Shown here: piece after piece, positions 360 through 43,218 of the stretch
How positions within the stretch are numbered: the first letter of the stretch is position 1
How the letters are laid out: each line of letters opens with the position of its first letter
DNA from: Balanoglossus misakiensis
Taxonomy: Eukaryota; Animalia; Hemichordata
NCBI GenBank assembly: GCA_040954595.2
Contig: CM082587.2
Coordinates: 11,773,262 to 11,837,261 of the forward strand
DNA length: 64,000 bases
Reading direction: 5' to 3'
Position numbers and translations under genes: made by a program
Notes under the pieces: model-generated
Database searches by the model: none
The model's input: only the letters and a program-made list of their open reading frames with translations
Told to the model about the DNA's origin: nothing

Positions 360-392
360 GCGAGTGAGTGTAATTGCAAATTTGCCTATTCT

Positions 393-577
393 AGATCTGT
401 AATGGAAATGGAGAAAGTACCTTATATTTTCTGTAAAATAGACATTTAATTGGCAAGCCGTCCTGCATCAATTATGAATTGTGTACATGCACTAAAGCGC
501 CCTCACTGCTGGGTGTGTTGTATGGTCTTTAACCCTGTTTCAAATTAGAGTACTTTCTGCAATTTCAAGACAGATCT
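393..577. mobile_element. Module B: MITE-like 179-bp element with imperfect TIRs (first full copy; present in every 452-bp monomer)
   Basis: Left end tctgtaatggaaatggagaaagtac (396-420) vs reverse complement of right end (550-574) tctgtcttgaaattgcagaaagtac: 20/25 match. Palindromic AGATCT at both ends (393-398, 572-577). Absent as a whole unit from short monomers. Confidence 0.8.
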
Positions 578-12500: not shown

Positions 12501-15500
12501 GTTGAGCTGAGGAGAGCACCTTCCTTCCCGGCACGCCACCAAGTAAAGTTCCACGCCGCCCACCACAGATGCCAGCATTCATTCATGCGAGTGAGTGTAA
12601 TTGCAAATTTGCCTATTCTAGATCTGTAATGGAAATGGAGAAAGTACCTTATATTTTCTGTAAAATAGACATTTAATTGGCAAGCCGTCCTGCATCAATT
12701 ATGAATTGTGTACATGCACTAAAGCGCCCTCACTGCTGGGTGTGTTGTATGGTCTTTAACCCTGTTTCAAATTAGAGTACTTTCTGCAATTTCAAGACAG
12801 ATCTTACGTGCCATTGGAGAGCTCCATTGACTGGTCATTCATACTGTTTTCATTCATTCATTGCGGCATCAATATATTTTATCTATTCTAGCCAAAGAGC
12901 TTGGCACCTGTTGAAATGAACTCATCTGCTGTGGGCCAGTTTATTGGTGGCAGTTGAGCTGAGGAGAGCACCTTCCTTCCCGGCACGCCACCAAGTAAAG
13001 TTCCACGCCGCCCACCACAGATGCCAGCATTCATTCATGCGAGTGAGTGTAATTGCAAATTTGCCTATTCTAGAATCTTACGTGCCATTGGAGAGCTCCA
13101 TTGACTGGTCATTCATACTGTTTTCATTCATTCATTGCGGCATCAATATATTTTATCTATTCTAGCCAAAGAGCTTGGCACCTGTTGAAATGAACTCATC
13201 TGCTGTGGGCCAGTTTATTGGTGGCAGTTGAGCTGAGGAGAGCACCTTCCTTCCCGGCACGCCACCAAGTAAAGTTCCACGCCGCCCACCACAGATGCCA
13301 GCATTCATTCATGCGAGTGAGTGTAATTGCAAATTTGCCTATTCTAGATCTGTAATGGAAATGGAGAAAGTACCTTATATTTTCTGTAAAATAGACATTT
13401 AATTGGCAAGCCGTCCTGCATCAATTATTAATTGTGTACATGCACTAAAGCGCCCTCACTGCTGGGTGTGTTGTATGGTCTTTAACCCTGTTTCAAATTA
13501 GAGTACTTTCTGCAATTTCAAGACAGATCTTACGTGCCATTGGAGAGCTCCATTGACTGGTCATTCATACTGTTTTCATTCATTCATTGCGGCATCAATA
13601 TATTTTATCTATTCTAGCCAAAGAGCTTGGCACCTGTTGAAATGAACTCATCTGCTGTGGGCCAGTTTATTGGTGGCAGTTGAGCTGAGAAGAGCACCTT
13701 CCTTCCCGGCACGCCACCAAGTAAAGTTCCACGCCGCCCACCACAGATGCCAGCATTCATTCATGCGAGTGAGTGTAATTGCAAATTTGCCTATTCTAGA
13801 TCTGTAATGGAAATGGAGAAAGTACCTTATATTTTCTGTAAAATAGACATTTAATTGGCAAGCCGTCCTGCATCAATTATGAATTGTGTACATGCACTAA
13901 AGCGCCCTCACTGCTGGGTGTGTTGTATGGTCTTTAACCCTGTTTCAAATTAGAGTACTTTCTGCAATTTCAAGACAGATCTTACGTGCCATTGGAGAGC
14001 TCCATTGACTGGTCATTCATACTGTTTTCATTCATTCATTGCGGCATCAATATATTTTATCTATTCTAGCCAAAGAGCTTGGCACCTGTTGAAATGAACT
14101 CATCTGCTGTGGGCCAGTTTATTGGTGGCAGTTGAGCTGAGGAGAGCACCTTCCTTCCCGGCACGCCACCAAGTAAAGTTCCACGCCGCCCACCACAGAT
14201 GCCAGCATTCATTCATGCGAGTGAGTGTAATTGCAAATTTGCCTATTCTAGATCTGTAATGGAAATGGAGAAAGTACCTTATATTTTCTGTAAAATAGAC
14301 ATTTAATTGGCAAGCCGTCCTGCATCAATTATGAATTGTGTACATGCACTAAAGCGCCCTCACTGCTGGGTGTGTTGTATGGTCTTTAACCCTGTTTCAA
14401 ATTAGAGTACTTTCTGCAATTTCAAGACAGATCTTACGTGCCATTGGAGAGCTCCATTGACTGGTCATTCATACTGTTTTCATTCATTCATTGCGGCATC
14501 AATATATTTTATCTATTCTAGCCAAAGAGCTTGGCACCTGTTGAAATGAACTCATCTGCTGTGGGCCAGTTTATTGGTGGCAGTTGAGCTGAGGAGAGCA
14601 CCTTCCTTCCCGGCACGCCACCAAGTAAAGTTCCACGCCGCCCACCACAGATGCCAGCATTCATTCATGCGAGTGAGTGTAATTGCAAATTTGCCTATTC
14701 TAGATCTGTAATGGAAATGGAGAAAGTACCTTATATTTTCTGTAAAATAGACATTTAATTGGCAAGCCGTCCTGCATCAATTATGAATTGTGTACATGCA
14801 CTAAAGCGCCCTCACTGCTGGGTGTGTTGTATGGTCTTTAACCCTGTTTCAAATTAGAGTACTTTCTGCAATTTCAAGACAGATCTTACGTGCCATTGGA
14901 GAGCTCCATTGACTGGTCATTCATACTGTTTTCATTCATTCATTGCGGCATCAATATATTTTATCTATTCTAGCCAAAGAGCTTGGCACCTGTTGAAATG
15001 AACTCATCTGCTGTGGGCCAGTTTATTGGTGGCAGTTGAGCTGAGAAGAGCACCTTCCTTCCCGGCACGCCACCAAGTAAAGTTCCACGCCGCCCACCAC
15101 AGATGCCAGCATTCATTCATGCGAGTGAGTGTAATTGCAAATTTGCCTATTCTAGAATCTTACGTGCCATTGGAGAGCTCCATTGACTGGTCATTCATAC
15201 TGTTTTCATTCATTCATTGCGGCATCAATATATTTTATCTATTCTAGCCAAAGAGCTTGGCACCTGTTGAAATGAACTCATCTGCTGTGGGCCAGTTTAT
15301 TGGTGGCAGTTGAGCTGAGGAGAGCACCTTCCTTCCCGGGACGCCACCAAGTAAAGTTCCACGCCGCCCACCACAGATGCCAGCATTCATTCATGCGAGT
15401 GAGTGTAATTGCAAATTTGCCTATTCTAGATTCTTACGTGCCATTGGAGAGCTCCATTGACTGGTCATTCATACTGTTTTCATTCATTCATTGCGGCATC

Positions 15501-18155
15501 AATATATTTTATCTATTCTAGCCAAAGAGCTTGGCACCTGTTGAAATGAACTCATCTGCTGTGGGCCAGTTTATTGGTGGCAGTTGAGCTGAGGAGAGCA
15601 CCTTCCTTCCCGGCACGCCACCAAGTAAAGTTCCACGCCGCCCACCACAGATGCCAGCATTCATTCATGCGAGTGAGTGTAATTGCAAATTTGCCTATTC
15701 TAGATCTGTAATGGAAATGGAGAAAGTACCTTATATTTTCTGTAAAATAGACATTTAATTGGCAAGCCGTCCTGCATCAATTATTAATTGTGTACATGCA
15801 CTAAAGCGCCCTCACTGCTGGGTGTGTTGTATGGTCTTTAACCCTGTTTCAAATTAGAGTACTTTCTGCAATTTCAAGACAGATCTTACGTGCCATTGGA
15901 GAGCTCCATTGACTGGTCATTCATACTGTTTTCATTCATTCATTGCGGCATCAATATATTTTATCTATTCTAGCCAAAGAGCTTGGCACCTGTTGAAATG
16001 AACTCATCTGCTGTGGGCCAGTTTATTGGTGGCAGTTGAGCTGAGGAGAGCACCTTCCTTCCCGGCACGCCACCAAGTAAAGTTCCACGCCGCCCACCAC
16101 AGATGCCAGCATTCATTCATGCGAGTGAGTGTAATTGCAAATTTGCCTATTCTAGATCTGTAATGGAAATGGAGAAAGTACCTTATATTTTCTGTAAAAT
16201 AGACATTTAATTGGCAAGCCGTCCTGCATCAATTATGAATTGTGTACATGCACTAAAGCGCCCTCACTGCTGGGTGTGTTGTATGGTCTTTAACCCTGTT
16301 TCAAATTAGAGTACTTTCTGCAATTTCAAGACAGATCTTACGTGCCATTGGAGAGCTCCATTGACTGGTCATTCATACTGTTTTCATTCATTCATTGCGG
16401 CATCAATATATTTTATGTATTCTAGCCAAAGAGCTTGGCACCTGTTGAAATGAACTCATCTGCTGTGGGCCAGTTTATTGGTGGCAGTTGAGCTGAGGAG
16501 AGCACCTTCCTTCCCGGCACGCCACCAAGTAAAGTTCCACGCCGCCCACCACAGATGCCAGCATTCATTCATGCGAGTGAGTGTAATTGCAAATTTGCCT
16601 ATTCTAGATCTGTAATGGAAATGGAGAAAGTACCTTATATTTTCTGTAAAATAGACATTTAATTGGCAAGCCGTCCTGCATCAATTATTAATTGTGTACA
16701 TGCACTAAAGCGCCCTCACTGCTGGGTGTGTTGTATGGTCTTTAACCCTGTTTCAAATTAGAGTACTTTCTGCAATTTCAAGACAGATCTTACGTGCCAT
16801 TGGAGAGCTCCATTGACTGGTCATTCATACTGTTTTCATTCATTCATTGCGGCATCAATATATTTTATCTATTCTAGCCAAAGAGCTTGGCACCTGTTGA
16901 AATGAACTCATCTGCTGTGGGCCAGTTTATTGGTGGCAGTTGAGCTGAGGAGAGCACCTTCCTTCCCGGCACGCCACCAAGTAAAGTTCCACGCCGCCCA
17001 CCACAGATGCCAGCATTCATTCATGCGAGTGAGTGTAATTGCAAATTTGCCTATTCTAGAATTACGTGCCATTGGAGAGCTCCATTGACTGGTCATTCAT
17101 ACTGTTTTCATTCATTCATTGCGGCATCAATATATTTTATCTATTCTAGCCAAAGAGCTTGGCACCTGTTGAAATGAACTCATCTGCTGTGGGCCAGTTT
17201 ATTGGTGGCAGTTGAGCTGAGGAGAGCACCTTCCTTCCCGGCACGCCACCAAGTAAAGTTCCACGCCGCCCACCACAGATGCCAGCATTCATTCATGCGA
17301 GTGAGTGTAATTGCAAATTTGCCTATTCTAGATCTGTAATGGAAATGGAGAAAGTACCTTATATTTTCTGTAAAATAGACATTTAATTGGCAAGCCGTCC
17401 TGCATCAATTATGAATTGTGTACATGCACTAAAGCGCCCTCACTGCTGGGTGTGTTGTATGGTCTTTAACCCTGTTTCAAATTAGAGTACTTTCTGCAAT
17501 TTCAAGACAGATCTTACGTGCCATTGGAGAGCTCCATTGACTGGTCATTCATACTGTTTTCATTCATTCATTGCGGCATCAATATATTTTATCTATTCTA
17601 GCCAAAGAGCTTGGCACCTGTTGAAATGAACTCATCTGCTGTGGGCCAGTTTATTGGTGGCAGTTGAGCTGAGGAGAGCACCTTCCTTCCCGGCACGCCA
17701 CCAAGTAAAGTTCCACGCCGCCCACCACAGATGCCAGCATTCATTCATGCGAGTGAGTGTAATTGCAAATTTGCCTATTCTAGATCTGTAATGGAAATGG
17801 AGAAAGTACCTTATATTTTCTGTAAAATAGACATTTAATTGGCAAGCCGTCCTGCATCAATTATGAATTGTGTACATGCACTAAAGCGCCCTCACTGCTG
17901 GGTGTGTTGTATGGTCTTTAACCCTGTTTCAAATTAGAGTACTTTCTGCAATTTCAAGACAGATCTTACGTGCCATTGGAGAGCTCCATTGACTGGTCAT
18001 TCATACTGTTTTCATTCATTCATTGCGGCATCAATATATTTTATCTATTCTAGCCAAAGAGCTTGGCACCTGTTGAAATGAACTCATCTGCTGTGGGCCA
18101 GTTTATTGGTGGCAGTTGAGCTGAGGAGAGCACCTTCCTTCCCGGCACGCCACCA

Positions 18156-19959
18156 AGTAAAGTTCCACGTGCATTCCTGGCCCTGGTTTTATTTATGTTT
18201 ACAGACAATATTGCATTTTTGTACAAGTATTTTAATCAACTATAAATTTTGAATGTGTCATTTACCTGAACCGGTCATGTTGACCAGAATGATACATTTC
18301 TGCCTTCACTCACCCTATAAATATGTGATTGAGACATAGGTCATTTGCATAAGCTAACATACCAGAAAGTAAGCATATCTGTTGTTTTCCCTGTGTCACT
18401 GCCATCAAAGTAAAAATTAGACGTTGTGTAGAGCAAACTCCAATTTTTTGTTCTCAATAAACATGGATGAATTACATAGAATGTGTTTGTTGTTTACAGT
18501 CTTTAAATGACACATTAGATTATGCACTTTACAAAACGTTTCTGAGAAACAAGTGACTAACTAGTTTCTTTCCACTGTGGCCAACGTGGTTCACTGTTTG
18601 TGTCAGAATCTCTCTGTTTTGCAAGGATTTTGAAATCATAGTGGTGACATGCATAGTGAAAATCAGCTACTTTCAAATGTCCGTCATGTTCATGCTGTAA
18701 TTGAATTTTCAAAGCTGGGCTGGCGTGTTTTTTCTTATTTACATAAGTATCACACTTTATACATGTATCTTCATGGGGTTTTTTGAGTCCCGTATTTAGG
18801 TCCTCTCTCACAATTTTACGAAATATCGTATAACTGACAGTTGTTCTTCCCAGAAGAGATTGGTTGGTTATGAACTCTCGGTGTAACTGCGATATACTGT
18901 GGTCCGGCGCCAGGTACGGTTTAAATCGAGGATTCCTGCAGTAGTGAGATTCTACAATTCTGTGCCTGCGTACGTGTTCAGTGATATCAGTCAGCAAATT
19001 TGGATTGAGTTTCCGACGATGCCCTTTGTGTCGGCCCCTTGCATCTGGCATCAGACCAGTAAAGTTCCATGTGCATTCCTGGCCCTGGTTTTATTTATGT
19101 TTACAGACAATATTGCATTTTTGTACAAGTATTTTAATCAACTATAAATTTTGAATGTGTCATTTACCTGAACCGGTCATGTTGACCAGAATGATACATT
19201 TCTGCCTTCACTCACCCTATAAATATGTGATTGAGACATAGGTCATTTGCATAAGCTAACATACCAGAAAGTAAGCATATCTGTTGTTTTCCCTGTGTCA
19301 CTGCCATCAAAGTAAAAATTAGACGTTGTGTAGAGCAAACTCCAATTTTTTGTTCTCAATAAACATGGATGAATTACATAGAATGTGTTTGTTGTTTACA
19401 GTCTTTAAATGACACATTAGATTATGCACTTTACAAAACGTTTCTGAGAAACAAGTGACTAACTAGTTTCTTTCCACTGTGGCCAACGTGGTTCACTGTT
19501 TGTGTCAGAATCTCTCTGTTTTGCAAGGATTTTGAAATCATAGTGGTGACATGCATAGTGAAAATCAGCTACTTTCAAATGTCCGTCATGTTCATGCTGT
19601 AATTGAATTTTCAAAGCTGGGCTGGCGTGTTTTTTCTTATTTACATAAGTATCACACTTTATACATGTATCTTCATGGGGTTTTCTGAGTCCCGTATTTA
19701 GGTCCTCTCTCACAATTTTACGAAATATCGTATAACTGACAGTTGTTCTTCCCAGAAGAGATTGGTTGGTTATGAACTCTCGGTGTAACTGCGATATACT
19801 GTGGTCCGGCGCCAGGTACGGTTTAAATCGAGGATTCCTGCAGTAGTGAGATTCTACAATTCTGTGCCTGCGTACGTGTTCAGTGATATCAGTCAGCAAA
19901 TTTGGATTGAGTTTCCGACGATGCCCTTTGTGTCGGCCCCTTGCATCTGGCATCAGACC
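18156..19959. repeat. 902-bp direct tandem duplication (18156-19057 / 19058-19959)
   Basis: Same sequence at offset 902, with agt microhomology at the junction. Two substitutions noticed: c18168/t19070 and a K/R codon change. Confidence 0.95.
18557..19051 (-). pseudogene. 5'-truncated duplicate of the transposase N-half gene (164 aa, open from an internal Met)
   Basis: Identical to the last 164 aa of the 19459-20415 protein except one R/K change. Lies in the 902-bp duplication. Confidence 0.75.
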
Positions 19960-20415
19960 AGTTGAACAGTGCATCATTTTGCTTAGAACGGTTCTAGTCC
20001 GCCTCTCACTAATGCCAAATAATTTCAGGAATGCATTTTTGCAGACAGTAACCGTTTCACCGCCTTCATTCACCAGGTGATAACGAACCGATTTCTTGTG
20101 TGACTTCATCTGTATATCCATCAGTTTGTAGAGCATCAAGTTCTGTTCATTATACACGCGACCATCAAAATATTTTCTCGTGGTGCCTAAAACATGCGTA
20201 CTCCCAAGCTTCCGCAGACAATTCCCTTGAACGCAGGCGCATTCCAAGGAAAGACTGTCAATATCTGGAAAAGGGCGATTTTTCCTTGGTTTTTGTCTCG
20301 GACACGTCTTTTTAGAATTCCTACGTGGCTTGTTGGCTCGAGCTGACAGTTCGGTTCTGCGTTGCTGCCACACAGGAATGGGTTCCCACGCATAAGCAAC
20401 TCCCCGGCAGGCCAT
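19459..20415 (-). CDS. N-terminal half of Sola1-like transposase (DNA-binding/Zn region), 318 aa
   Basis: First ATG at 20415. Motifs CACVQGNC, VTVCKNAFLKLFGISERR, DARGRH, ESHYCR..YL, SYTIFRKIV..N.GL.KPHEDTCIKCD, H..HL..A are typical of the region preceding the catalytic core in this family. Confidence 0.8.
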   Translation of the reverse strand: MACRGVAYAWEPIPVWQQRRTELSARANKPRRNSKKTCPRQKPRKNRPFPDIDSLSLECACVQGNCLRKLGSTHVLGTTRKYFDGRVYNEQNLMLYKLMDIQMKSHKKSVRYHLVNEGGETVTVCKNAFLKLFGISERRTRTVLSKMMHCSTGLMPDARGRHKGHRRKLNPNLLTDITEHVRRHRIVESHYCRNPRFKPYLAPDHSISQLHREFITNQSLLGRTTVSYTIFRKIVREDLNTGLRKPHEDTCIKCDTYVNKKKHASPALKIQLQHEHDGHLKVADFHYACHHYDFKILAKQRDSDTNSEPRWPQWKETS

Positions 20416-20586
20416 GGTCACAGCTGAAGTATTTGTTCAAGTACTGACTGACTAAACGCGGCATGGAACAAACGAACGAACGAACGAACGACTTCACGTT
20501 CGGAAAAAAAATCGTTGCGAGCTGTTGGGTGCCTCTATAGTTGTCGGCAACCGTTCTTTTTTATTGCTAAACAATGCTGTCAGAGC
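20416..20586. promoter_or_regulatory. Putative 171-bp bidirectional promoter between the two transposase halves
   Basis: Head-to-head ATGs at 20415(-) and 20587(+). Contains short (ACTG)n and (AACG)5 repeats. Function inferred from position only. Confidence 0.5.
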
Positions 20587-21600
20587 ATGGAAGGTGTGGT
20601 GGAAAACGAACAGAGGTTTTGTACGACCAACGATTGGATGGTGCTACATATGGACTTCCACAAGTCATTGCCGGTTCCTAAACTCAGCTCTGAAGACTTT
20701 TACTTTAAATCGAAATTGCAAATGAAGCTCCTTGGAATTTACAACGGGACAACGGAAAAGATGCATTGTTATGTATGGACAGAGCTCGATAGCAGAAAGT
20801 CTCCCGATGAAGTTATTACCTGTCTAAATCACTTTTTTTATAACTCGGGTGTGACCAGCAGACATGCAGTTATTTACAGCGACAACTGCCGTGCCGAATT
20901 CAAGTGTGGGAAGTTAATGTTTTACTATGACTATCTGTTACGAAAGGGCGTGTTTCGACGAATTGACTATAAAACTCTTGTGGCTGGACACACGTACTCC
21001 ACCTGTGACCGAGTTTTTGCGTCCATTGAAAGGCATGCAAGTCGTTTCCAGAGTATAGAGACACCTCACGATTGGACATCTGTGATTCGAGGATCTTCTC
21101 TGAATGGGAACATTGGAGTTACGGAGATGACTCACAGAGACTTTTTCAATTATTCTGATTTCCTGAAAAATGAGTACGTTGTGCGTTATGCAGATACAAA
21201 CAATGTAACTTTTTACTACCAAGCCATGCACTATTTTAATTTTGGAGAAGGAGAAAGGCTTGATACCGACGGCAACCTCAGAACATTTAGTCATGCAGAT
21301 AAAGTTTGGGTGAGAACATCTCTAGATCCAAGCGAGACCCCGATTGTAGTCGACTTTAGAAAGAAGAAGCAGAACCGGCGTTTACAAGATTGTACGCTGA
21401 ACAAACTTTATCAGGAACGTCGACCACTGGCGAGCAAAGTTTGGCGGGATCTTCAGAGTTTAGCCAAAAATTACCTGTCTCCGGAGGCAATAGAATTTTA
21501 TAGGAATCTACCGCTTCAGGAGAGTAGTGGCACCTCTGCAGACCCGTACGCCTTTCATGATGATGACGACGACGATGATGATGATATGGGCGGTGGTTGA
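20587..21600 (+). CDS. Catalytic (RNase H-fold DDD) half of Sola1-like transposase, 337 aa, acidic tail
   Basis: MDFHKSLPVP...FYFKSKL...CYVWTE...EVITCL...YSDNC...KTLVAGHTYSTCDRVFASIE: three candidate catalytic Asp intact. First ATG at 20587. ATTAAA at 21701. Confidence 0.87.
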   Translation: MEGVVENEQRFCTTNDWMVLHMDFHKSLPVPKLSSEDFYFKSKLQMKLLGIYNGTTEKMHCYVWTELDSRKSPDEVITCLNHFFYNSGVTSRHAVIYSDNCRAEFKCGKLMFYYDYLLRKGVFRRIDYKTLVAGHTYSTCDRVFASIERHASRFQSIETPHDWTSVIRGSSLNGNIGVTEMTHRDFFNYSDFLKNEYVVRYADTNNVTFYYQAMHYFNFGEGERLDTDGNLRTFSHADKVWVRTSLDPSETPIVVDFRKKKQNRRLQDCTLNKLYQERRPLASKVWRDLQSLAKNYLSPEAIEFYRNLPLQESSGTSADPYAFHDDDDDDDDDMGGG

Positions 21601-21918
21601 ACAAACTGTCCTTTTCATGACGACAGTGATTTTGGATATTTGATGTGCGTGCACAGTTTATATGTAATATTTTCACACGAACGAGTTTTGACTGAATTTG
21701 ATTAAAGAATGTACTCGATAATTAACAAATGTGCTGAATCGTGGTTATTATGTTGTTAATTTTTGTTTGTTTGTTTGTTTGTTTGTAAACAATTTCCGTT
21801 CATTCAACTGGCTACAAAGTTGGATTTTTGTACTGGGAAGCGATAAACTCGCACATCAAAACCGGGGAGACTCGATCATTTTTCCCTGCAGGTAGCCTGA
21901 AAAGCACCCGGGCAGAGA

Positions 21919-21991
21919 TTACGTCATATATGGTCCACTTTAATACGAAATTATGCAAATGTGACATTTCACGGAAACGGCGTATATAAAA
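21919..21991 (+). promoter_or_regulatory. Pol II promoter-like cluster upstream of wHTH-SET gene
   Basis: CRE-like TTACGTCA 21919-21926, octamer ATGCAAAT 21953-21960, TATATAAAA 21983-21991, about 90 bp before ATG 22084. Confidence 0.55.
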
Positions 21992-22083
21992 GCGACCCTG
22001 GGCTATTGTTCGGAATGCGTCATCGACGAGAGAGTGACTGATAATTCTTCTACCTCGAGTCAACCATTCTGTATATACTGAAC

Positions 22084-23410
22084 ATGGCTAGCTGGCGCAG
22101 GAAGAGACAAGGCAATGTGCGGTCTGTAATCAACGAACGGCACCGCTCAGTTCAGTGTCCCTTTCTTCAAAAGTGGATCGGTGAGCAATTGGTATTTTCA
22201 GGTCGTTCAGAGGATGAAGTCCAGTCCAGTACTGTATTTGAGAGCTACAAATGTTGGGTTGAAAACTATTCGTCGGCGGACAATCAAGTAATGATTATGG
22301 TTACTAAAGCTCGATTTTTCAAGGTGAGAATGATCGCATTTTTCTTCCCCCCCCCCCTCCCTCCCCCAAGGGACTCGTTTTCTGTCTCTTTTAAACCTGT
22401 AACTTAACGAAAAGGAAGTTTTTCACATATCTCTTTGTTGACACTATAGCAATTTGGAGCGCGGATGCTTCAAGAGAATAGCGTTACCAAATCAAAGTCG
22501 GCCGGGGTTAATATTTATAGAGGTGTTCGTCTGAAAGCTGGTTCGCGAAGAATCTCAACGGGGAAACCTGAGCACAGTGTACTTCAGACCAGGGCAAGGG
22601 CATTTCTTGATGACGCCAGCGTGACCGTTCCGATCGAGGTAAGAATGGTGTTTTGTTTGGACTAGGACAATAGAACGTTGCAATGAGTGTGTCAATGGGT
22701 GTCCAAGTGCAAACGTGGTCGGCTTCTGTCCACAAATGCCATTAATTTTAGGCAGGATTTATAAAATTGTCAATGAAGAATACAAAAATGAAAAACAATA
22801 GTTAATAGCAAACGGGTAGGATTGCAAGGGCTTGTAAAACGGTACACACTGTACCAGGAAGTTTGCAACACTAATGAAGAATGTATATGATATATTTAGG
22901 TGAGAACTGTTCGCGATCGCCGGGACGCAGGACGGTGCGCGTTTTCGACGAGGGATCTTCAAGCCTGGAACGTCGTCTGCGAATACCGGGGCACGGTTAT
23001 TAGCGTTGAAGAAGCTAGTCGGCGTGATGAACTTTACAGGGCAGAGGGGAAACGACCACGCATGTTTCATCTCTACATTGGAAAGAGACACGTTGTGTGA
23101 GTGTATCACTTAGTCGAATATATGGTCATATATTGCAAAGCATCTGTCGAAATAGAAAACGTAATATTGTCTATATTTTCCTCATTAACGCAGCATTGAC
23201 GGATACGATGTCCCAGCCGGTGAAGAAAATTTAGCGGGCCTAATAAATCACAGTCAGCAGAACGCCAACTTGGTACCGGTTCGGATCGGAGAGCGCCTGG
23301 TTTTCTTTGCAACCAGGAATCTTTGTCAGGGAGTAGAGCTTTTGTATGATTACGGTGACGGGGGTGAAGAGGATTTCTTCAGTGGTTCTCAAACTTTTCC
23401 TGAAAATTAA
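22084..23410 (+). CDS. 4-exon gene: D5/RFX-like winged helix fused to SET8/PR-Set7(KMT5A)-like SET domain, ~280 aa
   Basis: Exons 22084-22323, 22450-22638, 22900-23096, 23194-23410 joined by GT-AG introns (phases 0, 0, 2) give one open frame. SET motifs AGRCAFSTRDL..VVCEYRG, IDG, LAGLINHS..N, FATRNL..GVELLYDYGD. N-terminus FLQKWI..VQSSTVFESYKCW..KARFFKQFG..NIYRGVRLK resembles a wHTH. Confidence 0.88.
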
Positions 23411-24319
23411 GGCATTAACACATCAACGCTTCGGGATGTCGTAACGGCGGCAAGGCGGGGGGGGGGGGGGGGGGGGCGTGAAAATGTTTGTATCAGGAAC
23501 AAAATTCCCGTGCAAATCACCTTGATCCGGGTGGGTGGACTATTCGCGACAAATGTTGGAAATCATACAAAGCATTTTACTTAATTAACCCATTTTTTTC
23601 ATTTATTTGTTTACAGTTTACAACGTCATAGAGAAGTTGAACTAGAGACTGGATCAGCGTGGGTGACACCATAGTACACCAATGTTTTCTTCAGTTTGAT
23701 TCAATTGTAATTTAAAACTGAGATTGCCTAACGCTTTCCCAGATTTTTTTAACCACTGAGAAACTGTGGGTTTTTTTCTGGGTTTTGGTGCGAGGTGATC
23801 TCAGTCAGTGGTGTTAATTTAATTAATCATTTTCTTTTCCTATTTACGTCGACTGAAATGTATTTTGATAGGTGATAGTCATACCATAAAAAAATCTTAC
23901 GGCGCGACTGCCAAAATGTACATTTATTTGTCCGTTCCAAGTTATTTTGTGTATGTGTGATGGGTGCCGGTGACTGTGCAGGGTTGATTTCCCTAGAGCG
24001 ACTGTTATATTCGTTTTCCAACGATGATGAATTTACATGTTATTTGCTTGGCATTTTGACGCAGAGACACTTCTGAAAACACAAACCTATTAATTATGCC
24101 ACGGGTGTAAATTGATCACATTAAAAGAGGCTTTAGACGTTTGCCGCGAGCTCCTGGTGGGCAGAATCTTGTCAGCCCAAATTTGACTATAAGTACATAG
24201 CCAATGATGTGACGCTCTCCCACATCCTTCGCCGCGCCTTTTCGCTGATTTACAGCATCTTGCGTAAACACTGTCATTTGATCTTGCTTGGCAGAAGTCA
24301 ACTTGCTCTATACTACATT

Positions 24320-24685
24320 ATGGCGGCCAAGCTCAACTGCATATCAGATAATGCCAAGGAGCGTTTGAGAGGCATCCTCGCCAGAAGGAGTCGCGTTTCC
24401 GGTGACTGTGTGCTCTGGACGGGTGCAGCTTGTCGAAACGGCTATGGCTCTATTACGTTCAGAGATGAGAACACTCTAACCGCCTATGTCCATCACATTG
24501 CACTCCTAATTAACGGAGTGCAATTGGTGGGCAGGCGGTTAGAGTGTTCTCATCTTTGCAACGAAAAGCTATGCATCCGCCCAGAGCACATTGTCCAGGA
24601 AACGCGACTCCTAAACATTTCACGAAAGACGTGCTTTAAATCCCCAAAAGGGGAGTGTCACCACGATCCCAGGTGCCTAAGGTGA
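24320..24685 (+). CDS. His-Me finger endonuclease (zinc-binding loop homing endonuclease, I-PpoI-like), 121 aa
   Basis: CVLWTGA..NGYGSI...YVHH...ECSHLCNEKLCIRPEHIVQET..LNISRKTC...CHHDPRC. First ATG at 24320. The stop overlaps a strong donor AAG|GTGAGT, so the 3' end may be spliced. Confidence 0.88.
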   Translation: MAAKLNCISDNAKERLRGILARRSRVSGDCVLWTGAACRNGYGSITFRDENTLTAYVHHIALLINGVQLVGRRLECSHLCNEKLCIRPEHIVQETRLLNISRKTCFKSPKGECHHDPRCLR

Positions 24686-25598
24686 GTAATCCTCTTCTCA
24701 TTTGATATGTATTGTGTGACCCTGCAGTTGAAACGCTTTCATCAATAATTTGCGGCGCGTGGGTAATCTCGGTGTTATTGACAATGCAGCCGGCCCAAAC
24801 ATTTTTAAATTAACACTGTTTCTGACTGTATTAACGAAATGTCCAATTTGCAAGTAGCCTATAGACAACCCTTTTGAATGAGTTTTGTCTCGTTGAGATT
24901 TTATACATAAGGAACAATCTAGATTTATTTTAGAAGACACTGTTCTTTTAAAACAGCTAGCATAATACAGCTAAATTTCGGAATTTCCGGACAATTTTCG
25001 GAATTCCTTTTAAATTTGAGAAATTTTTCATCAGATATAAGTGTTACTATTTATTGGACATGTTTTTATCATTGTTTACTTTTTAAGGTCATTCTCATCC
25101 CCCCCCCCCCCCCCAAAAAAAAGCCGCTTTAGGCTTCATGTTCAGTAAAAAATCTGGAAAGTTCAGCTGAATTTTACACTGATCACACATTTTTGGGAAG
25201 GTCTGGCGCAAAATAAAGGATGACAAATGTAAATCTAATGTCACATTTGTAAACCTCTAAGTATTGTACACTCATTCTATTAAGTATATGCAAATAGTAC
25301 GGATAATTTTTTCGGAATGTGGAATTCCGAAATTAGTTCGGAACGTGTTAGCAGTGAAGAGATCACCACTGAGGGTTGGAAGGCCTTGCCAGAAATTAAC
25401 GCGTAAAGTACGCCCTCACAGGCCATGTAAACAAGGTCAAATAAGGCCGTCTGGCAAACGAATGATTAATTCAACGCGCCATTTGAGCCGAGCTGAGTTG
25501 GTCTGAGTTGCGTATCACACAGACTTAGGCTGAATGTCAGTGGAGTAACCAGTCCGTTTTAGATTTACCAATGATGTGAATTTAATTTCTTCACCCAG

Positions 25599-26000
25599 AA
25601 AAACAGAACACAACTTGTCTGCAACATGATGCTGGAGGTGACACATGACAGAGAAGTGGATCCGCGTTGTCAACACAGATGCCAGCATTCAAAAGGGGAG
25701 TGCCACCTGCTAAAATCAACTCATCTGCTGTTGGCCCATTTTACCTGTGGCAACTGTTCAGAGGAGACAACGTTTATTCCGTGCAAGCCAACACGCAATG
25801 TTGGGGTCTACCTGTCAACACAGATGCAAGCATTCATGTGAGTGAGTATCAGGACTGACCTTGTTTTGCTGAATAATTCATAATGCCTATTTTAGAATTC
25901 TTAGAGGCATTTGGAGTTCATTGCCTGGTCAACCAAACTACACCCCTTAACAGCTGAAACAAAATGCGTATTGTGTTCATTCATTCATTGCTTCAATATA
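25599..26000 (+). repeat. Diverged copy of satellite module A inside the cassette
   Basis: Blocks acagatgccagcattca, aactcatctgctgt, agcattcatgtgagtgagt, tgcctattttagaattctta, ctggtca and ttcattcattcattgc occur in monomer order. Internal direct repeat tgtcaacacagatgc at 25668 and 25813. Confidence 0.85.
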
Positions 26001-26316
26001 TATAGGCAACATGAGTATCAAGTAGCACTATTTGTTTACGATTGTATTCATGAAAACTTCCCACTAACAATTCCACAGTTAATATTGAACACATTTATCC
26101 AACAAGGTCAAAAGAAAAAGGGAATCTTCTGGTTCCAAAATACGCCACAAATGTGGGTCAACATACAGTGAAATATTATGGTGCTCAAATATGCAACATA
26201 TCAAATCTGTCTCATCAAAGTCATGCTTTAAAAAAGAATTGAAAAGGTATTATTTATCCATTTGACTGCTGTATTTTCAGAAGGAAAACAAACTGAATTT
26301 GGTTTTTCATGTACAA

Positions 26317-29300
26317 ATATTTTCTGTAAAATAGACATTTAATTGGCAAGCCGTCCTGCATCAATTATTAATTGTGTACATGCACTAAAGCGCCCTCACT
26401 GCTGGGTGTGTTGTATGGTCTTTAACCCTGTTTCAAATTAGAGTACTTTCTGCAATTTCAAGACAGATCTTACGTGCCATTGGAGAGCTCCATTGACTGG
26501 TCATTCATACTGTTTTCATTCATTCATTGCGGCATCAATATATTTTATGTATTCTAGCCAAAGAGCTTGGCACCTGTTGAAATGAACTCATCTGCTGTGG
26601 GCCAGTTTATTGGTGGCAGTTGAGCTGAGGAGAGCACCTTCCTTCCCGGCACGCCACCAAGTAAAGTTCCACGCCGCCCACCACAGATGCCAGCATTCAT
26701 TCATGCGAGTGAGTGTAATTGCAAATTTGCCTATTCTAGATCTGTAATGGAAATGGAGAAAGTACCTTATATTTTCTGTAAAATAGACATTTAATTGGCA
26801 AGCCGTCCTGCATCAATTATTAATTGTGTACATGCACTAAAGCGCCCTCACTGCTGGGTGTGTTGTATGGTCTTTAACCCTGTTTCAAATTAGAGTACTT
26901 TCTGCAATTTCAAGACAGATCTTACGTGCCATTGGAGAGCTCCATTGACTGGTCATTCATACTGTTTTCATTCATTCATTGCGGCATCAATATATTTTAT
27001 CTATTCTAGCCAAAGAGCTTGGCACCTGTTGAAATGAACTCATCTGCTGTGGGCCAGTTTATTGGTGGCAGTTGAGCTGAGGAGAGCACCTTCCTTCCCG
27101 GCACGCCACCAAGTAAAGTTCCACGCCGCCCACCACAGATGCCAGCATTCATTCATGCGAGTGAGTGTAATTGCAAATTTGCCTATTCTAGAATTACGTG
27201 CCATTGGAGAGCTCCATTGACTGGTCATTCATACTGTTTTCATTCATTCATTGCGGCATCAATATATTTTATCTATTCTAGCCAAAGAGCTTGGCACCTG
27301 TTGAAATGAACTCATCTGCTGTGGGCCAGTTTATTGGTGGCAGTTGAGCTGAGGAGAGCACCTTCCTTCCCGGCACGCCACCAAGTAAAGTTCCACGCCG
27401 CCCACCACAGATGCCAGCATTCATTCATGCGAGTGAGTGTAATTGCAAATTTGCCTATTCTAGATCTGTAATGGAAATGGAGAAAGTACCTTATATTTTC
27501 TGTAAAATAGACATTTAATTGGCAAGCCGTCCTGCATCAATTATGAATTGTGTACATGCACTAAAGCGCCCTCACTGCTGGGTGTGTTGTATGGTCTTTA
27601 ACCCTGTTTCAAATTAGAGTACTTTCTGCAATTTCAAGACAGATCTTACGTGCCATTGGAGAGCTCCATTGACTGGTCATTCATACTGTTTTCATTCATT
27701 CATTGCGGCATCAATATATTTTATCTATTCTAGCCAAAGAGCTTGGCACCTGTTGAAATGAACTCATCTGCTGTGGGCCAGTTTATTGGTGGCAGTTGAG
27801 CTGAGGAGAGCACCTTCCTTCCCGGCACGCCACCAAGTAAAGTTCCACGCCGCCCACCACAGATGCCAGCATTCATTCATGCGAGTGAGTGTAATTGCAA
27901 ATTTGCCTATTCTAGAATCTTACGTGCCATTGGAGAGCTCCATTGACTGGTCATTCATACTGTTTTCATTCATTCATTGCGGCATCAATATATTTTATCT
28001 ATTCTAGCCAAAGAGCTTGGCACCTGTTGAAATGAACTCATCTGCTGTGGGCCAGTTTATTGGTGGCAGTTGAGCTGAGGAGAGCACCTTCCTTCCCGGC
28101 ACGCCACCAAGTAAAGTTCCACGCCGCCCACCACAGATGCCAGCATTCATTCATGCGAGTGAGTGTAATTGCAAATTTGCCTATTCTAGATCTGTAATGG
28201 AAATGGAGAAAGTACCTTATATTTTCTGTAAAATAGACATTTAATTGGCAAGCCGTCCTGCATCAATTATTAATTGTGTACATGCACTAAAGCGCCCTCA
28301 CTGCTGGGTGTGTTGTATGGTCTTTAACCCTGTTTCAAATTAGAGTACTTTCTGCAATTTCAAGACAGATCTTACGTGCCATTGGAGAGCTCCATTGACT
28401 GGTCATTCATACTGTTTTCATTCATTCATTGCGGCATCAATATATTTTATCTATTCTAGCCAAAGAGCTTGGCACCTGTTGAAATGAACTCATCTGCTGT
28501 GGGCCAGTTTATTGGTGGCAGTTGAGCTGAGAAGAGCACCTTCCTTCCCGGCACGCCACCAAGTAAAGTTCCACGCCGCCCACCACAGATGCCAGCATTC
28601 ATTCATGCGAGTGAGTGTAATTGCAAATTTGCCTATTCTAGATCTGTAATGGAAATGGAGAAAGTACCTTATATTTTCTGTAAAATAGACATTTAATTGG
28701 CAAGCCGTCCTGCATCAATTATGAATTGTGTACATGCACTAAAGCGCCCTCACTGCTGGGTGTGTTGTATGGTCTTTAACCCTGTTTCAAATTAGAGTAC
28801 TTTCTGCAATTTCAAGACAGATCTTACGTGCCATTGGAGAGCTCCATTGACTGGTCATTCATACTGTTTTCATTCATTCATTGCGGCATCAATATATTTT
28901 ATCTATTCTAGCCAAAGAGCTTGGCACCTGTTGAAATGAACTCATCTGCTGTGGGCCAGTTTATTGGTGGCAGTTGAGCTGAGGAGAGCACCTTCCTTCC
29001 CGGCACGCCACCAAGTAAAGTTCCACGCCGCCCACCACAGATGCCAGCATTCATTCATGCGAGTGAGTGTAATTGCAAATTTGCCTATTCTAGATCTGTA
29101 ATGGAAATGGAGAAAGTACCTTATATTTTCTGTAAAATAGACATTTAATTGGCAAGCCGTCCTGCATCAATTATGAATTGTGTACATGCACTAAAGCGCC
29201 CTCACTGCTGGGTGTGTTGTATGGTCTTTAACCCTGTTTCAAATTAGAGTACTTTCTGCAATTTCAAGACAGATCTTACGTGCCATTGGAGAGCTCCATT

Positions 29301-32300
29301 GACTGGTCATTCATACTGTTTTCATTCATTCATTGCGGCATCAATATATTTTATCTATTCTAGCCAAAGAGCTTGGCACCTGTTGAAATGAACTCATCTG
29401 CTGTGGGCCAGTTTATTGGTGGCAGTTGAGCTGAGGAGAGCACCTTCCTTCCCGGCACGCCACCAAGTAAAGTTCCACGCCGCCCACCACAGATGCCAGC
29501 ATTCATTCATGCGAGTGAGTGTAATTGCAAATTTGCCTATTCTAGATCTGTAATGGAAATGGAGAAAGTACCTTATATTTTCTGTAAAATAGACATTTAA
29601 TTGGCAAGCCGTCCTGCATCAATTATGAATTGTGTACATGCACTAAAGCGCCCTCACTGCTGGGTGTGTTGTATGGTCTTTAACCCTGTTTCAAATTAGA
29701 GTACTTTCTGCAATTTCAAGACAGATCTTACGTGCCATTGGAGAGCTCCATTGACTGGTCATTCATACTGTTTTCATTCATTCATTGCGGCATCAATATA
29801 TTTTATCTATTCTAGCCAAAGAGCTTGGCACCTGTTGAAATGAACTCATCTGCTGTGGGCCAGTTTATTGGTGGCAGTTGAGCTGAGGAGAGCACCTTCC
29901 TTCCCGGCACGCCACCAAGTAAAGTTCCACGCCGCCCACCACAGATGCCAGCATTCATTCATGCGAGTGAGTGTAATTGCAAATTTGCCTATTCTAGATC
30001 TGTAATGGAAATGGAGAAAGTACCTTATATTTTCTGTAAAATAGACATTTAATTGGCAAGCCGTCCTGCATCAATTATGAATTGTGTACATGCACTAAAG
30101 CGCCCTCACTGCTGGGTGTGTTGTATGGTCTTTAACCCTGTTTCAAATTAGAGTACTTTCTGCAATTTCAAGACAGATCTTACGTGCCATTGGAGAGCTC
30201 CATTGACTGGTCATTCATACTGTTTTCATTCATTCATTGCGGCATCAATATATTTTATCTATTCTAGCCAAAGAGCTTGGCACCTGTTGAAATGAACTCA
30301 TCTGCTGTGGGCCAGTTTATTGGTGGCAGTTGAGCTGAGAAGAGCACCTTCCTTCCCGGCACGCCACCAAGTAAAGTTCCACGCCGCCCACCACAGATGC
30401 CAGCATTCATTCATGCGAGTGAGTGTAATTGCAAATTTGCCTATTCTAGAATCTTACGTGCCATTGGAGAGCTCCATTGACTGGTCATTCATACTGTTTT
30501 CATTCATTCATTGCGGCATCAATATATTTTATCTATTCTAGCCAAAGAGCTTGGCACCTGTTGAAATGAACTCATCTGCTGTGGGCCAGTTTATTGGTGG
30601 CAGTTGAGCTGAGGAGAGCACCTTCCTTCCCGGGACGCCACCAAGTAAAGTTCCACGCCGCCCACCACAGATGCCAGCATTCATTCATGCGAGTGAGTGT
30701 AATTGCAAATTTGCCTATTCTAGATTCTTACGTGCCATTGGAGAGCTCCATTGACTGGTCATTCATACTGTTTTCATTCATTCATTGCGGCATCAATATA
30801 TTTTATCTATTCTAGCCAAAGAGCTTGGCACCTGTTGAAATGAACTCATCTGCTGTGGGCCAGTTTATTGGTGGCAGTTGAGCTGAGGAGAGCACCTTCC
30901 TTCCCGGCACGCCACCAAGTAAAGTTCCACGCCGCCCACCACAGATGCCAGCATTCATTCATGCGAGTGAGTGTAATTGCAAATTTGCCTATTCTAGATC
31001 TGTAATGGAAATGGAGAAAGTACCTTATATTTTCTGTAAAATAGACATTTAATTGGCAAGCCGTCCTGCATCAATTATTAATTGTGTACATGCACTAAAG
31101 CGCCCTCACTGCTGGGTGTGTTGTATGGTCTTTAACCCTGTTTCAAATTAGAGTACTTTCTGCAATTTCAAGACAGATCTTACGTGCCATTGGAGAGCTC
31201 CATTGACTGGTCATTCATACTGTTTTCATTCATTCATTGCGGCATCAATATATTTTATCTATTCTAGCCAAAGAGCTTGGCACCTGTTGAAATGAACTCA
31301 TCTGCTGTGGGCCAGTTTATTGGTGGCAGTTGAGCTGAGGAGAGCACCTTCCTTCCCGGCACGCCACCAAGTAAAGTTCCACGCCGCCCACCACAGATGC
31401 CAGCATTCATTCATGCGAGTGAGTGTAATTGCAAATTTGCCTATTCTAGATCTGTAATGGAAATGGAGAAAGTACCTTATATTTTCTGTAAAATAGACAT
31501 TTAATTGGCAAGCCGTCCTGCATCAATTATTAATTGTGTACATGCACTAAAGCGCCCTCACTGCTGGGTGTGTTGTATGGTCTTTAACCCTGTTTCAAAT
31601 TAGAGTACTTTCTGCAATTTCAAGACAGATCTTACGTGCCATTGGAGAGCTCCATTGACTGGTCATTCATACTGTTTTCATTCATTCATTGCGGCATCAA
31701 TATATTTTATCTATTCTAGCCAAAGAGCTTGGCACCTGTTGAAATGAACTCATCTGCTGTGGGCCAGTTTATTGGTGGCAGTTGAGCTGAGGAGAGCACC
31801 TTCCTTCCCGGCACGCCACCAAGTAAAGTTCCACGCCGCCCACCACAGATGCCAGCATTCATTCATGCGAGTGAGTGTAATTGCAAATTTGCCTATTCTA
31901 GAATTACGTGCCATTGGAGAGCTCCATTGACTGGTCATTCATACTGTTTTCATTCATTCATTGCGGCATCAATATATTTTATCTATTCTAGCCAAAGAGC
32001 TTGGCACCTGTTGAAATGAACTCATCTGCTGTGGGCCAGTTTATTGGTGGCAGTTGAGCTGAGGAGAGCACCTTCCTTCCCGGCACGCCACCAAGTAAAG
32101 TTCCACGCCGCCCACCACAGATGCCAGCATTCATTCATGCGAGTGAGTGTAATTGCAAATTTGCCTATTCTAGATCTGTAATGGAAATGGAGAAAGTACC
32201 TTATATTTTCTGTAAAATAGACATTTAATTGGCAAGCCGTCCTGCATCAATTATGAATTGTGTACATGCACTAAAGCGCCCTCACTGCTGGGTGTGTTGT

Positions 32301-35300
32301 ATGGTCTTTAACCCTGTTTCAAATTAGAGTACTTTCTGCAATTTCAAGACAGATCTTACGTGCCATTGGAGAGCTCCATTGACTGGTCATTCATACTGTT
32401 TTCATTCATTCATTGCGGCATCAATATATTTTATCTATTCTAGCCAAAGAGCTTGGCACCTGTTGAAATGAACTCATCTGCTGTGGGCCAGTTTATTGGT
32501 GGCAGTTGAGCTGAGGAGAGCACCTTCCTTCCCGGCACGCCACCAAGTAAAGTTCCACGCCGCCCACCACAGATGCCAGCATTCATTCATGCGAGTGAGT
32601 GTAATTGCAAATTTGCCTATTCTAGAATCTTACGTGCCATTGGAGAGCTCCATTGACTGGTCATTCATACTGTTTTCATTCATTCATTGCGGCATCAATA
32701 TATTTTATCTATTCTAGCCAAAGAGCTTGGCACCTGTTGAAATGAACTCATCTGCTGTGGGCCAGTTTATTGGTGGCAGTTGAGCTGAGGAGAGCACCTT
32801 CCTTCCCGGCACGCCACCAAGTAAAGTTCCACGCCGCCCACCACAGATGCCAGCATTCATTCATGCGAGTGAGTGTAATTGCAAATTTGCCTATTCTAGA
32901 TCTGTAATGGAAATGGAGAAAGTACCTTATATTTTCTGTAAAATAGACATTTAATTGGCAAGCCGTCCTGCATCAATTATTAATTGTGTACATGCACTAA
33001 AGCGCCCTCACTGCTGGGTGTGTTGTATGGTCTTTAACCCTGTTTCAAATTAGAGTACTTTCTGCAATTTCAAGACAGATCTTACGTGCCATTGGAGAGC
33101 TCCATTGACTGGTCATTCATACTGTTTTCATTCATTCATTGCGGCATCAATATATTTTATCTATTCTAGCCAAAGAGCTTGGCACCTGTTGAAATGAACT
33201 CATCTGCTGTGGGCCAGTTTATTGGTGGCAGTTGAGCTGAGAAGAGCACCTTCCTTCCCGGCACGCCACCAAGTAAAGTTCCACGCCGCCCACCACAGAT
33301 GCCAGCATTCATTCATGCGAGTGAGTGTAATTGCAAATTTGCCTATTCTAGATCTGTAATGGAAATGGAGAAAGTACCTTATATTTTCTGTAAAATAGAC
33401 ATTTAATTGGCAAGCCGTCCTGCATCAATTATGAATTGTGTACATGCACTAAAGCGCCCTCACTGCTGGGTGTGTTGTATGGTCTTTAACCCTGTTTCAA
33501 ATTAGAGTACTTTCTGCAATTTCAAGACAGATCTTACGTGCCATTGGAGAGCTCCATTGACTGGTCATTCATACTGTTTTCATTCATTCATTGCGGCATC
33601 AATATATTTTATCTATTCTAGCCAAAGAGCTTGGCACCTGTTGAAATGAACTCATCTGCTGTGGGCCAGTTTATTGGTGGCAGTTGAGCTGAGGAGAGCA
33701 CCTTCCTTCCCGGCACGCCACCAAGTAAAGTTCCACGCCGCCCACCACAGATGCCAGCATTCATTCATGCGAGTGAGTGTAATTGCAAATTTGCCTATTC
33801 TAGATCTGTAATGGAAATGGAGAAAGTACCTTATATTTTCTGTAAAATAGACATTTAATTGGCAAGCCGTCCTGCATCAATTATGAATTGTGTACATGCA
33901 CTAAAGCGCCCTCACTGCTGGGTGTGTTGTATGGTCTTTAACCCTGTTTCAAATTAGAGTACTTTCTGCAATTTCAAGACAGATCTTACGTGCCATTGGA
34001 GAGCTCCATTGACTGGTCATTCATACTGTTTTCATTCATTCATTGCGGCATCAATATATTTTATCTATTCTAGCCAAAGAGCTTGGCACCTGTTGAAATG
34101 AACTCATCTGCTGTGGGCCAGTTTATTGGTGGCAGTTGAGCTGAGGAGAGCACCTTCCTTCCCGGCACGCCACCAAGTAAAGTTCCACGCCGCCCACCAC
34201 AGATGCCAGCATTCATTCATGCGAGTGAGTGTAATTGCAAATTTGCCTATTCTAGATCTGTAATGGAAATGGAGAAAGTACCTTATATTTTCTGTAAAAT
34301 AGACATTTAATTGGCAAGCCGTCCTGCATCAATTATGAATTGTGTACATGCACTAAAGCGCCCTCACTGCTGGGTGTGTTGTATGGTCTTTAACCCTGTT
34401 TCAAATTAGAGTACTTTCTGCAATTTCAAGACAGATCTTACGTGCCATTGGAGAGCTCCATTGACTGGTCATTCATACTGTTTTCATTCATTCATTGCGG
34501 CATCAATATATTTTATCTATTCTAGCCAAAGAGCTTGGCACCTGTTGAAATGAACTCATCTGCTGTGGGCCAGTTTATTGGTGGCAGTTGAGCTGAGGAG
34601 AGCACCTTCCTTCCCGGCACGCCACCAAGTAAAGTTCCACGCCGCCCACCACAGATGCCAGCATTCATTCATGCGAGTGAGTGTAATTGCAAATTTGCCT
34701 ATTCTAGATCTGTAATGGAAATGGAGAAAGTACCTTATATTTTCTGTAAAATAGACATTTAATTGGCAAGCCGTCCTGCATCAATTATGAATTGTGTACA
34801 TGCACTAAAGCGCCCTCACTGCTGGGTGTGTTGTATGGTCTTTAACCCTGTTTCAAATTAGAGTACTTTCTGCAATTTCAAGACAGATCTTACGTGCCAT
34901 TGGAGAGCTCCATTGACTGGTCATTCATACTGTTTTCATTCATTCATTGCGGCATCAATATATTTTATCTATTCTAGCCAAAGAGCTTGGCACCTGTTGA
35001 AATGAACTCATCTGCTGTGGGCCAGTTTATTGGTGGCAGTTGAGCTGAGAAGAGCACCTTCCTTCCCGGCACGCCACCAAGTAAAGTTCCACGCCGCCCA
35101 CCACAGATGCCAGCATTCATTCATGCGAGTGAGTGTAATTGCAAATTTGCCTATTCTAGAATCTTACGTGCCATTGGAGAGCTCCATTGACTGGTCATTC
35201 ATACTGTTTTCATTCATTCATTGCGGCATCAATATATTTTATCTATTCTAGCCAAAGAGCTTGGCACCTGTTGAAATGAACTCATCTGCTGTGGGCCAGT

Positions 35301-43047: not shown

Positions 43048-43218
43048 GGTCACAGCTGAAGTATTTGTTCAAGTACTGACTGACTAAACGCGGCATGGAA
43101 CAAACGAACGAACGAACGAACGACTTCACGTTCGGAAAAAAAATCGTTGCGAGCTGTTGGGTGCCTCTATAGTTGTCGGCAACCGTTCTTTTTTATTGCT
43201 AAACAATGCTGTCAGAGC

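Follow-up and report, generated by a model that had tools for sequence, protein, structure and literature searches.

We analyzed a 64,000-nucleotide stretch of the genome of the hemichordate Balanoglossus misakiensis (assembly GCA_040954595.2, contig CM082587.2, positions 11,773,262 to 11,837,261 of the forward strand), referred to as the window herein, in which an 8.3-kb cassette of four open genes (18170-26466) lies within satellite DNA. The cassette is probably a cut-and-paste, Sola-like DNA transposon that encodes its transposase in two genes on opposite strands together with a predicted DNA-binding, SET8-like methyltransferase, and that resides in a satellite composed of a spacer and the transposon's own miniature. 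It apparently represents an undescribed lineage of Sola-like DNA transposons. We found no description in the literature of a split Sola-like element with a winged helix-turn-helix SET (wHTH-SET) gene, Repbase, Repbase Reports and Dfam not being covered by this search, and we consider it unlikely that the element has already been described elsewhere. An earlier note, made from the letters of this DNA alone, had proposed four intact genes in a cassette of about 8 kb. This was borne out, as all four genes are present and open.

The split transposase and the linked methyltransferase gene

The two transposase genes lie head-to-head with their start codons 171 bp apart. The N-half gene (318 aa, 20415-19459, minus strand) carries the motifs SHYCR and DTCIKC (DxCxxC), is predicted to encode the DNA-binding, zinc-containing part, and matches the N-terminal part of fused relatives. 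The C-half gene (337 aa, 20587-21600, plus strand) contains three aspartates (D23, D99 and D141) and matches Pfam DUF7869 with an E-value of 1.4e-14. Its structural model (mean predicted local distance difference test score, pLDDT, 85.7) has an RNase H/integrase fold with an integrase/Mos1-like core (Z 8-9, root-mean-square deviation ∼3), compact and without an insertion domain. The SHY, DxCxxC and GH…D motifs are common to the window halves and to DUF7869 proteins of 600-900 aa with a single open reading frame (ORF), which we take to be Sola transposases.

A full HMMER search with the C-half returned 3054 relatives. The 13 matches at E<1e-30 are 144-376 aa long, and the full-length ones begin near the first aspartate. 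None of these 13 clade proteins contains the N-half, versus 62 of 62 long relatives outside the clade. Phylogenetic analysis placed the window and 17 stand-alone C-halves, one of them from Nematostella, in a single clade (FastTree 0.997; ultrafast bootstrap 88). For FastTree, 151 of 190 candidates passed the coverage filter and 17 near-duplicates were removed to leave 134, of which 50 were used for IQ-TREE. Since the C-halves of the clade lack the N-half and the long relatives outside it all possess one, the split is a trait of the clade. A stand-alone C-half from the sister branch, P0007, carries an N-terminal PHD finger, a second link of this lineage to chromatin reading. Searches with the N-half were less productive: a word-indexed protein search gave no related sequence among 276 candidates, a blank that does not show absence, and in the Atlas the N-half fell with unnamed eukaryotic clusters at 0.95-0.96, the nearest named DUF7869 standing at 0.85. 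Viral contigs gave no match for the C-half, the N-half or the nuclease.

A metagenome scan yielded 140 pattern matches, which were reduced to 56 loci with related C-halves; many are near-identical, so that they amount to ∼8-10 sequence groups and not to 56 independent cases. In 18 of the 56, the opposite strand bears the N-half as a gene of its own, head-to-head in some and tail-to-tail in others. At 12 loci it is on the same strand, where the proteins are distant (22-27% identity) and of the fused type, mostly in one frame, and the remaining 26 have no N-half within the contig. Hence the opposite-strand arrangement holds for the window and for every split-type locus that shows both halves (18 of 18), and all N-halves with a visible end terminate at one common position. 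The proposal in the earlier note of a split, Sola-like transposase thus holds up, both in the clade of stand-alone C-halves and in the loci with an opposite-strand N-half.

The third gene encodes a 280-aa protein with a winged helix and a SET8-like methyltransferase domain on the plus strand. Its four GT-AG exons (22084-22323, 22450-22638, 22900-23096 and 23194-23410) form a stop-free frame, and exon 4 matches Pfam SET (E 1.7e-7). The splice model is supported because all three introns interrupt the same codons in the window and in two related loci, L009 and L016. The SET motifs INHS and ELLYDY are present. In a PDB sequence search, exon 4 and the relative from L013 both ranked CpSET8 and SET8 first. 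Our evidence on the fold comes from a model of a coral homologue (pLDDT 68) and not from the window's own spliced protein; in this model, the SET domain matches SET8 with Z 13.1 (1zkk), and residues 16-118 match RFX5, RFX1 and the P4 origin-binding domain with Z 8.5-8.7. Another homologue has a weak Pox_D5 match (E 0.0035) that is below the cut-off. A strict pattern for the PIP degron had no match in the window's protein, the N-terminus of which is the winged helix instead.

This gene is, on the evidence of its neighbors, linked to the split transposase across relatives, as had been suggested. Of the 56 loci, 17 have SET sequence next to the C-half, and no fused-type locus (0 of 12) is among them; the N-half, C-half and SET occur together in 11 loci belonging to three sequence groups, with the L003 group holding the last SET exon only. 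Named homologues are the multi-copy "KMT5A-like" genes of Oculina, Porites, Montipora and Desmophyllum. Two Oculina gene models fuse the N-half and SET sequence, which implies that both genes are neighbors there too. Directly downstream of the C-half in L013 (1402-2217), L024 and L025 is an intronless, partly frameshifted wHTH-SET copy, which suggests retro-processing of the gene inside a DNA element.

Comparison among relatives also indicates that all three genes are under purifying selection. For the C-half, N-half and wHTH-SET, synonymous sites are near saturation versus a proportion of nonsynonymous differences (pN) of 0.16-0.34, and omega was 0.24 for one close C-half pair.

The satellite array, element ends and cassette junctions

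A single young satellite (1-18169, 26467-40801 and 49099-64000, plus strand) accounts for about 48 kb of the window. Its monomers are ∼99% identical and come in a 452-bp filled form and in 272/274/275-bp unfilled forms. Splitting at a fixed anchor gave 119 monomers (80 of 452 bp, 26 of 274 bp, 12 of 272 bp and one of 275 bp), with two further anchor intervals being those that hold the cassette copies. The 452-bp monomer consists of a 273-bp spacer and a 177-bp non-autonomous element inserted at AG·AT·CT. An example copy of this element at 17786-17962 (plus strand) reads CTGT…ACAG with AT on both sides, and its terminal inverted repeats (TIRs) are 24 bp long with 19 of 24 positions identical. 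The ratio of CpG observed to expected is 0.45 in the satellite versus 0.84-1.06 in the four cassette genes.

The 177-bp element is missing from 39 of the 119 monomers, all of them short, and an exact empty site was found in none of the 119. Instead, the junctions in the short monomers are of four altered types, with 16, 12, 10 and 1 copies. In the single-copy type both flanking bases are complemented, the pattern expected from hairpin-type excision. These footprint-like junctions suggest at least four imprecise excisions that were afterwards copied by crossover. We rejected the idea that the missing perfect empty site is a sign of nuclease cutting, as only about four events are sampled.

Contigs from two sequencing runs of another individual (X1 and X2; X3 and X4, of small shares, were left out) were used for comparison. 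In X1, element copies outside the array have (AT)n at both ends, which sets CTG…CAG as the element ends and AT as the target. These flanks ruled out a Ginger-like TGT…ACA/GATC reading, and a candidate TG..CA excision joint at GATC in X2 was also discarded, many GATC joints in that run having the look of proximity-ligation products. In the window, the flanks AGAT and ATCT have only AT in common.

The same ends were found in a distant relative. Four loci (L015-L018) are four assemblies of one family that closes on itself as a 13.65-kb unit, with 33% identity to the window in the C-half. Their strongest inverted repeat is an outward-facing pair that begins AT·CTGTC and encloses a 125-bp spacer, leaving an element of 13,521 bp with AT·CTGT…ACAG·AT ends as in the window. 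The TIR is identical to the window's right TIR at 14 of 18 nucleotides (∼1e-5 for one fixed comparison). The flanks in L016-L018, CAAT and ATTA, again share only AT, and in L017 two spacer copies are joined by the footprint type that is found ten times in the window. We conclude from these matches that the AT·CTGT ends belong to the element family, and together with the 11 loci that hold all three genes this speaks, in agreement with the earlier note, for one mobile element and not a chance nest of insertions. Among the relatives, both ends are seen in this one complete 13.5-kb family, and no duplication extends beyond AT. Both families with visible ends adjoin a short direct repeat (n=2), but the spacers themselves are unrelated. 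No small-RNA-gene target is indicated, since Rfam gave no match in the window (17000-27500) or in 14 related loci and no tRNA was found in those same 14 loci.

The cassette is present twice, as had been noted, but not independently. Its second copy (40802-49098, plus strand) is 22,632 bp from the first and differs by two 1-bp indels and zero substitutions over 8.3 kb; the array downstream of both is 100% identical, with the next 36 monomers in the same order. Because of this near or full identity, the two cassettes are one recent 22.6-kb tandem duplication and not two insertions. Nor is the cassette an invention of the assembly, though the second copy may be false, since X1 and X2 contigs cover 29 of 30 cassette bins with ∼1% differences.

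The claim that array monomers with TIRs run contiguously into the right end of the cassette was correct for the last 150 bp (26317-26466, plus strand), which are the right part of the 177-bp element and close with the right TIR (26443-26466). The TIRs, however, bound 177 and not 452 bp, and the cassette's left TIR is missing. On the left, the cassette joins the spacer through 14 shared nucleotides, at the start of an extra 902-bp tandem copy that covers the N-half gene's 3′ part together with its 3′ flank (18156-19057, minus strand; 99.8% identical to 19058-19962). This duplicate has about double depth in X1 (1564 versus 750-775). In L001 (795-1826) and L002 (2733-2992), too, the 3′ end of a transposase-half gene is partly duplicated in tandem.

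Two further repeats are found within the cassette, toward its right end. An old, diverged spacer copy of ∼1.3 units (25668-26001, plus strand; 71-83% identity) lacks the TIR element at the insertion site. At 24938-25356, an unrelated passenger repeat carries inverted arms internally and is bounded by CACTG…CAGTG; X1 contains other copies of it with differing flanks, and varied loose ends occur at 24974 and 25350. Minor variant contigs in X1 and X2 were observed at 23201-23317 (SET exon 4), 24109-24736 (nuclease) and 25668-26001 (old spacer), and these suggest further diverged families of element and spacer in the host genome. Among the related loci, L004 has an intronless STING-like gene adjoining the element (6093-7145; Pfam STING_LBD and STING_TM), which could be host flank, cargo or a misjoin. 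Unrelated mobile elements neighbor three other loci: a Harbinger-like transposase with a Myb gene in L022 (2022-4765), a long terminal repeat retrotransposon in L006 (441-4632) and a reverse transcriptase gene in L027 (2585-4462).

The nuclease gene, the proposed mechanism and rival explanations

The fourth gene (24320-24685, plus strand) encodes a 121-aa His-Cys box nuclease of the I-PpoI type (Pfam zf-His_Me_endon, PF05551, E 6.7e-13). It aligns with I-PpoI at E 0.002, the SH, H, E and N positions being matched. The catalytic residues of this type in KolobokP are given as S97, H98, H110, E114 and N119 in the available part of that report (PMC9587614), and the window's nuclease keeps these catalytic positions.

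The catalytic coding region is covered by an imperfect inverted repeat (24386-24612) that is predicted to form a 93-pair hairpin of -154.5 kcal/mol, with z -19.3 against 100 dinucleotide shuffles. The nuclease coding sequence as a whole folds at -191.6, versus a best value of -123.2 among 100 synonymous-codon shuffles. With 87 of 93 pairs being Watson-Crick and almost no G-U, the hairpin could form as RNA or as DNA on either strand. Its arms encode the conserved CxLW and CxxPxH motifs. No hairpin of similar strength was found elsewhere in the cassette or in the five relatives scanned (weakest threshold -85; best -92). The hairpin might limit a toxic nuclease through small RNAs, editing or blocked translation.

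Based on these results, we propose the following mechanism. The two transposase halves very probably assemble in trans, with TIR binding by the N-half and cleavage by the DDD triad of the C-half. Quite probably, the element inserts at AT in a short repeat, units of element and spacer multiply by unequal crossover, and the transposase excises miniatures, at least four times here, with the footprints then being copied. Internal deletion would have produced the miniature that now dominates the array, and a gene-bearing copy would have lost its left end before being duplicated together with the array. Whether the winged helix anchors the SET domain on the DNA of element or spacer, so that histone H4 there becomes monomethylated at lysine 20 (H4K20me1), to the benefit of the element's own expression, replication or repair, is to us an evenly balanced question. 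Somewhat less probable is that the nuclease is cargo gained in this lineage, that breaks in the array promote crossover and gene conversion, and that the message hairpin keeps the nuclease low.

Tethered H4K20 methylation and nuclease-induced crossover are both plausible as aids to amplification. Published accounts, as far as the available text of each goes, report that stabilized SET8 without its PIP box leads to compaction and re-replication (PMC3597678) and propose, as a hypothesis, that the KolobokP nuclease induces unequal crossover (PMC9587614). A more elaborate version seems improbable to us. It would have a system that runs the array, in which the two-subunit transposase moves miniatures in and out of the spacer, the nuclease cuts vacated sites so that repair from filled neighbors restores or multiplies the element, a DNA-tethered, degron-free SET8 compacts or re-licenses the array, and the hairpin in the nuclease's own catalytic coding sequence throttles it. 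Protein-guided restorative homing of this kind is treated, in the portion of the source available, as theoretically possible only for repeat-targeting transposons and as unreported in Dada (PMC13565253).

Several points weigh against the reading of the cassette as one satellite-dwelling transposon, in addition to the small number of independent sequence groups among the 56 loci. Both ends were recovered for one related family only, from collapsed short contigs. None of the other split-type loci has a TIR pair of the AT·CTGT kind, their contigs ending in repeats before any terminus. The window spacer and the L015-L018 spacer show no sequence relationship (as high a score was reached by 112 and by 60 of 200 shuffles), and no target duplication was seen at an insertion into unique sequence. 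The cassette itself has no left TIR (best match, 8 mismatches of 24), and this copy may therefore be immobile unless the end of an upstream miniature is used. At the right, the X1 cassette contig (depth 775) departs from the window at 26317, precisely where the shared 150 bp begin, and the X2 contig continues to 26337, 20 bp into them; because of this, the 26317 junction may be secondary or polymorphic. In a Foldseek search, the SET domain matched MLL1 as well as SET8, and thus its substrate is not fixed. Lastly, phmmer found the nuclease in none of the 56 related loci (best E 0.19), including the complete 13.5-kb relative. It was also missing from 67 further frames from relatives searched with Pfam, and a word-indexed protein search gave no relative among four candidates, a blank that does not show absence. 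Because of its absence from the related loci, the nuclease is, judging by what the relatives contain, cargo of this lineage or a nested gene and not a conserved family trait; its place in a conserved gene set was not upheld.

In a rival explanation, which we regard as fairly unlikely, the three-gene element of split transposase and wHTH-SET is real, and neither the TIR miniature nor the satellite nor the nuclease belongs to it, these having been joined to it through deletion and crossover inside a host satellite. The left junction with its 14-nt microhomology and no TIR, the divergence of X1 at 26317, the lack of the nuclease in relatives and the separate passenger repeat at 24938-25356 are all consistent with this, as are the raised depth and the variant letters seen across the nuclease region in X1 and X2, which suggest other related copies. 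It is opposed by the distant L015-L018 relative, which shares with the window the end signature, the presence of a spacer and the footprint type. Moreover, the old spacer copy in the cassette and a minor X2 variant in which old-type spacer is joined to the left end of the cassette (joint 25790 to 19059) imply that the association is old.

Very unlikely, in our view, is a domesticated module kept in tandem by the host for its own benefit (e.g., programmed DNA elimination or the marking of a centromere-like array), for which the two-gene organization of RAG offers a comparison. That all genes are open, with purifying selection in relatives, and that another individual's contigs span the cassette with little change would agree with domestication. 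Yet the loci include several divergent families that differ in gene order, as well as broken copies and a SET copy without introns, wHTH-SET genes are multi-copy in coral genomes, and the footprints and dispersed miniatures indicate ordinary mobility.

Finally, a KolobokP-type composite element with the 452-bp monomer as its long terminal direct repeat is scarcely credible and was rejected: an I-PpoI-type nuclease, multimers, excised TIR-bearing repeats and the ∼450-bp length are all known there, by the part of the description available (PMC9587614), but the TIRs in the window span 177 and not 452 bp, the ends are CT…AG and not RR…YY, no repeat is found at both cassette ends, and the transposase is of the DUF7869 type and split.

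Significance and comparison with known systems

A satellite-dwelling transposon of the kind we favor would extend animal DNA transposons by a lineage whose transposase naturally consists of two subunits and could be kept off until both halves are supplied. It would also trace at least some of the multi-copy coral "KMT5A-like" genes back to a transposon. For Hydractinia and sea urchin, one study, in the portion available, reports unexplained expansions of KMT5A that are active when the genome is activated and mostly differ in architecture (PMC10368294). The satellite appears to have been caught in the course of its assembly from an element's miniature; excision footprints can still be read in it, so that one can test whether an element drives its own satellite. 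Quite apart from this, it is unusual for the conserved catalytic codons of a nuclease to double as a 93-pair stem.

The element resembles Sola1 in its DDD core without an insertion domain, its SHY/DxCxxC/GH…D motifs, its TIRs and its miniature derivatives, the comparison having been made with DUF7869 proteins and with no named Sola reference. According to the part of the account available (PMC3845634), Sola1 has a single transposase ORF of 630 aa and a 4-bp AWWT duplication as its hallmark, whereas the window has two genes on opposite strands and shows AT, a duplication of 2 bp or none; the (AT)n flanks seen in X1 would fit with or without the 4-bp hallmark. Also unlike Sola1, the element has a wHTH-SET8 gene and adjoins a spacer repeat.

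With KolobokP (PMC9587614), as the accessible text presents it, the element shares a DDD/E transposase in the company of an I-PpoI-type His-Cys nuclease, multimers, small TIR units that are excised with imprecise junctions, and unequal crossover that the nuclease is proposed to induce. KolobokP has long terminal direct repeats (∼450 or ∼660 bp) with their own TIRs at both ends, whereas the window cassette has 150 bp of the 177-bp unit at the right and none at the left. Its termini are 5′-RR…YY-3′, in contrast to CTG…CAG in the window and L015-L018. The KolobokP transposase bears a C/DxxH signature and zinc-finger insertions; the window C-half, in a model to which no Kolobok reference was aligned, is a compact core without an insertion domain. 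Within the same text, no SET gene or hairpin is described for KolobokP, and in the window lineage it is the nuclease that is no conserved family trait.

SET histone methyltransferases are carried by HarbingerS and MuDR families in Phytophthora (PMC12730594, from the section available). Those are other superfamilies in another kingdom, and the SET domain in the window is SET8-like and fused to an RFX/D5-type winged helix. The tandem arrays grown by crossover are like those of transposon-derived satellites, as the available passages on tandem hobo and Bari1 describe them (PMC5932611), and residence in a repeated target is shared with the target-specific Dada transposons, for which the accessible text reports no homing-type nuclease (PMC13565253). 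Unlike tandem hobo, Bari1 and Dada, the window retains a gene-bearing cassette in the array alongside its miniature, and the footprints point to turnover inside the array.

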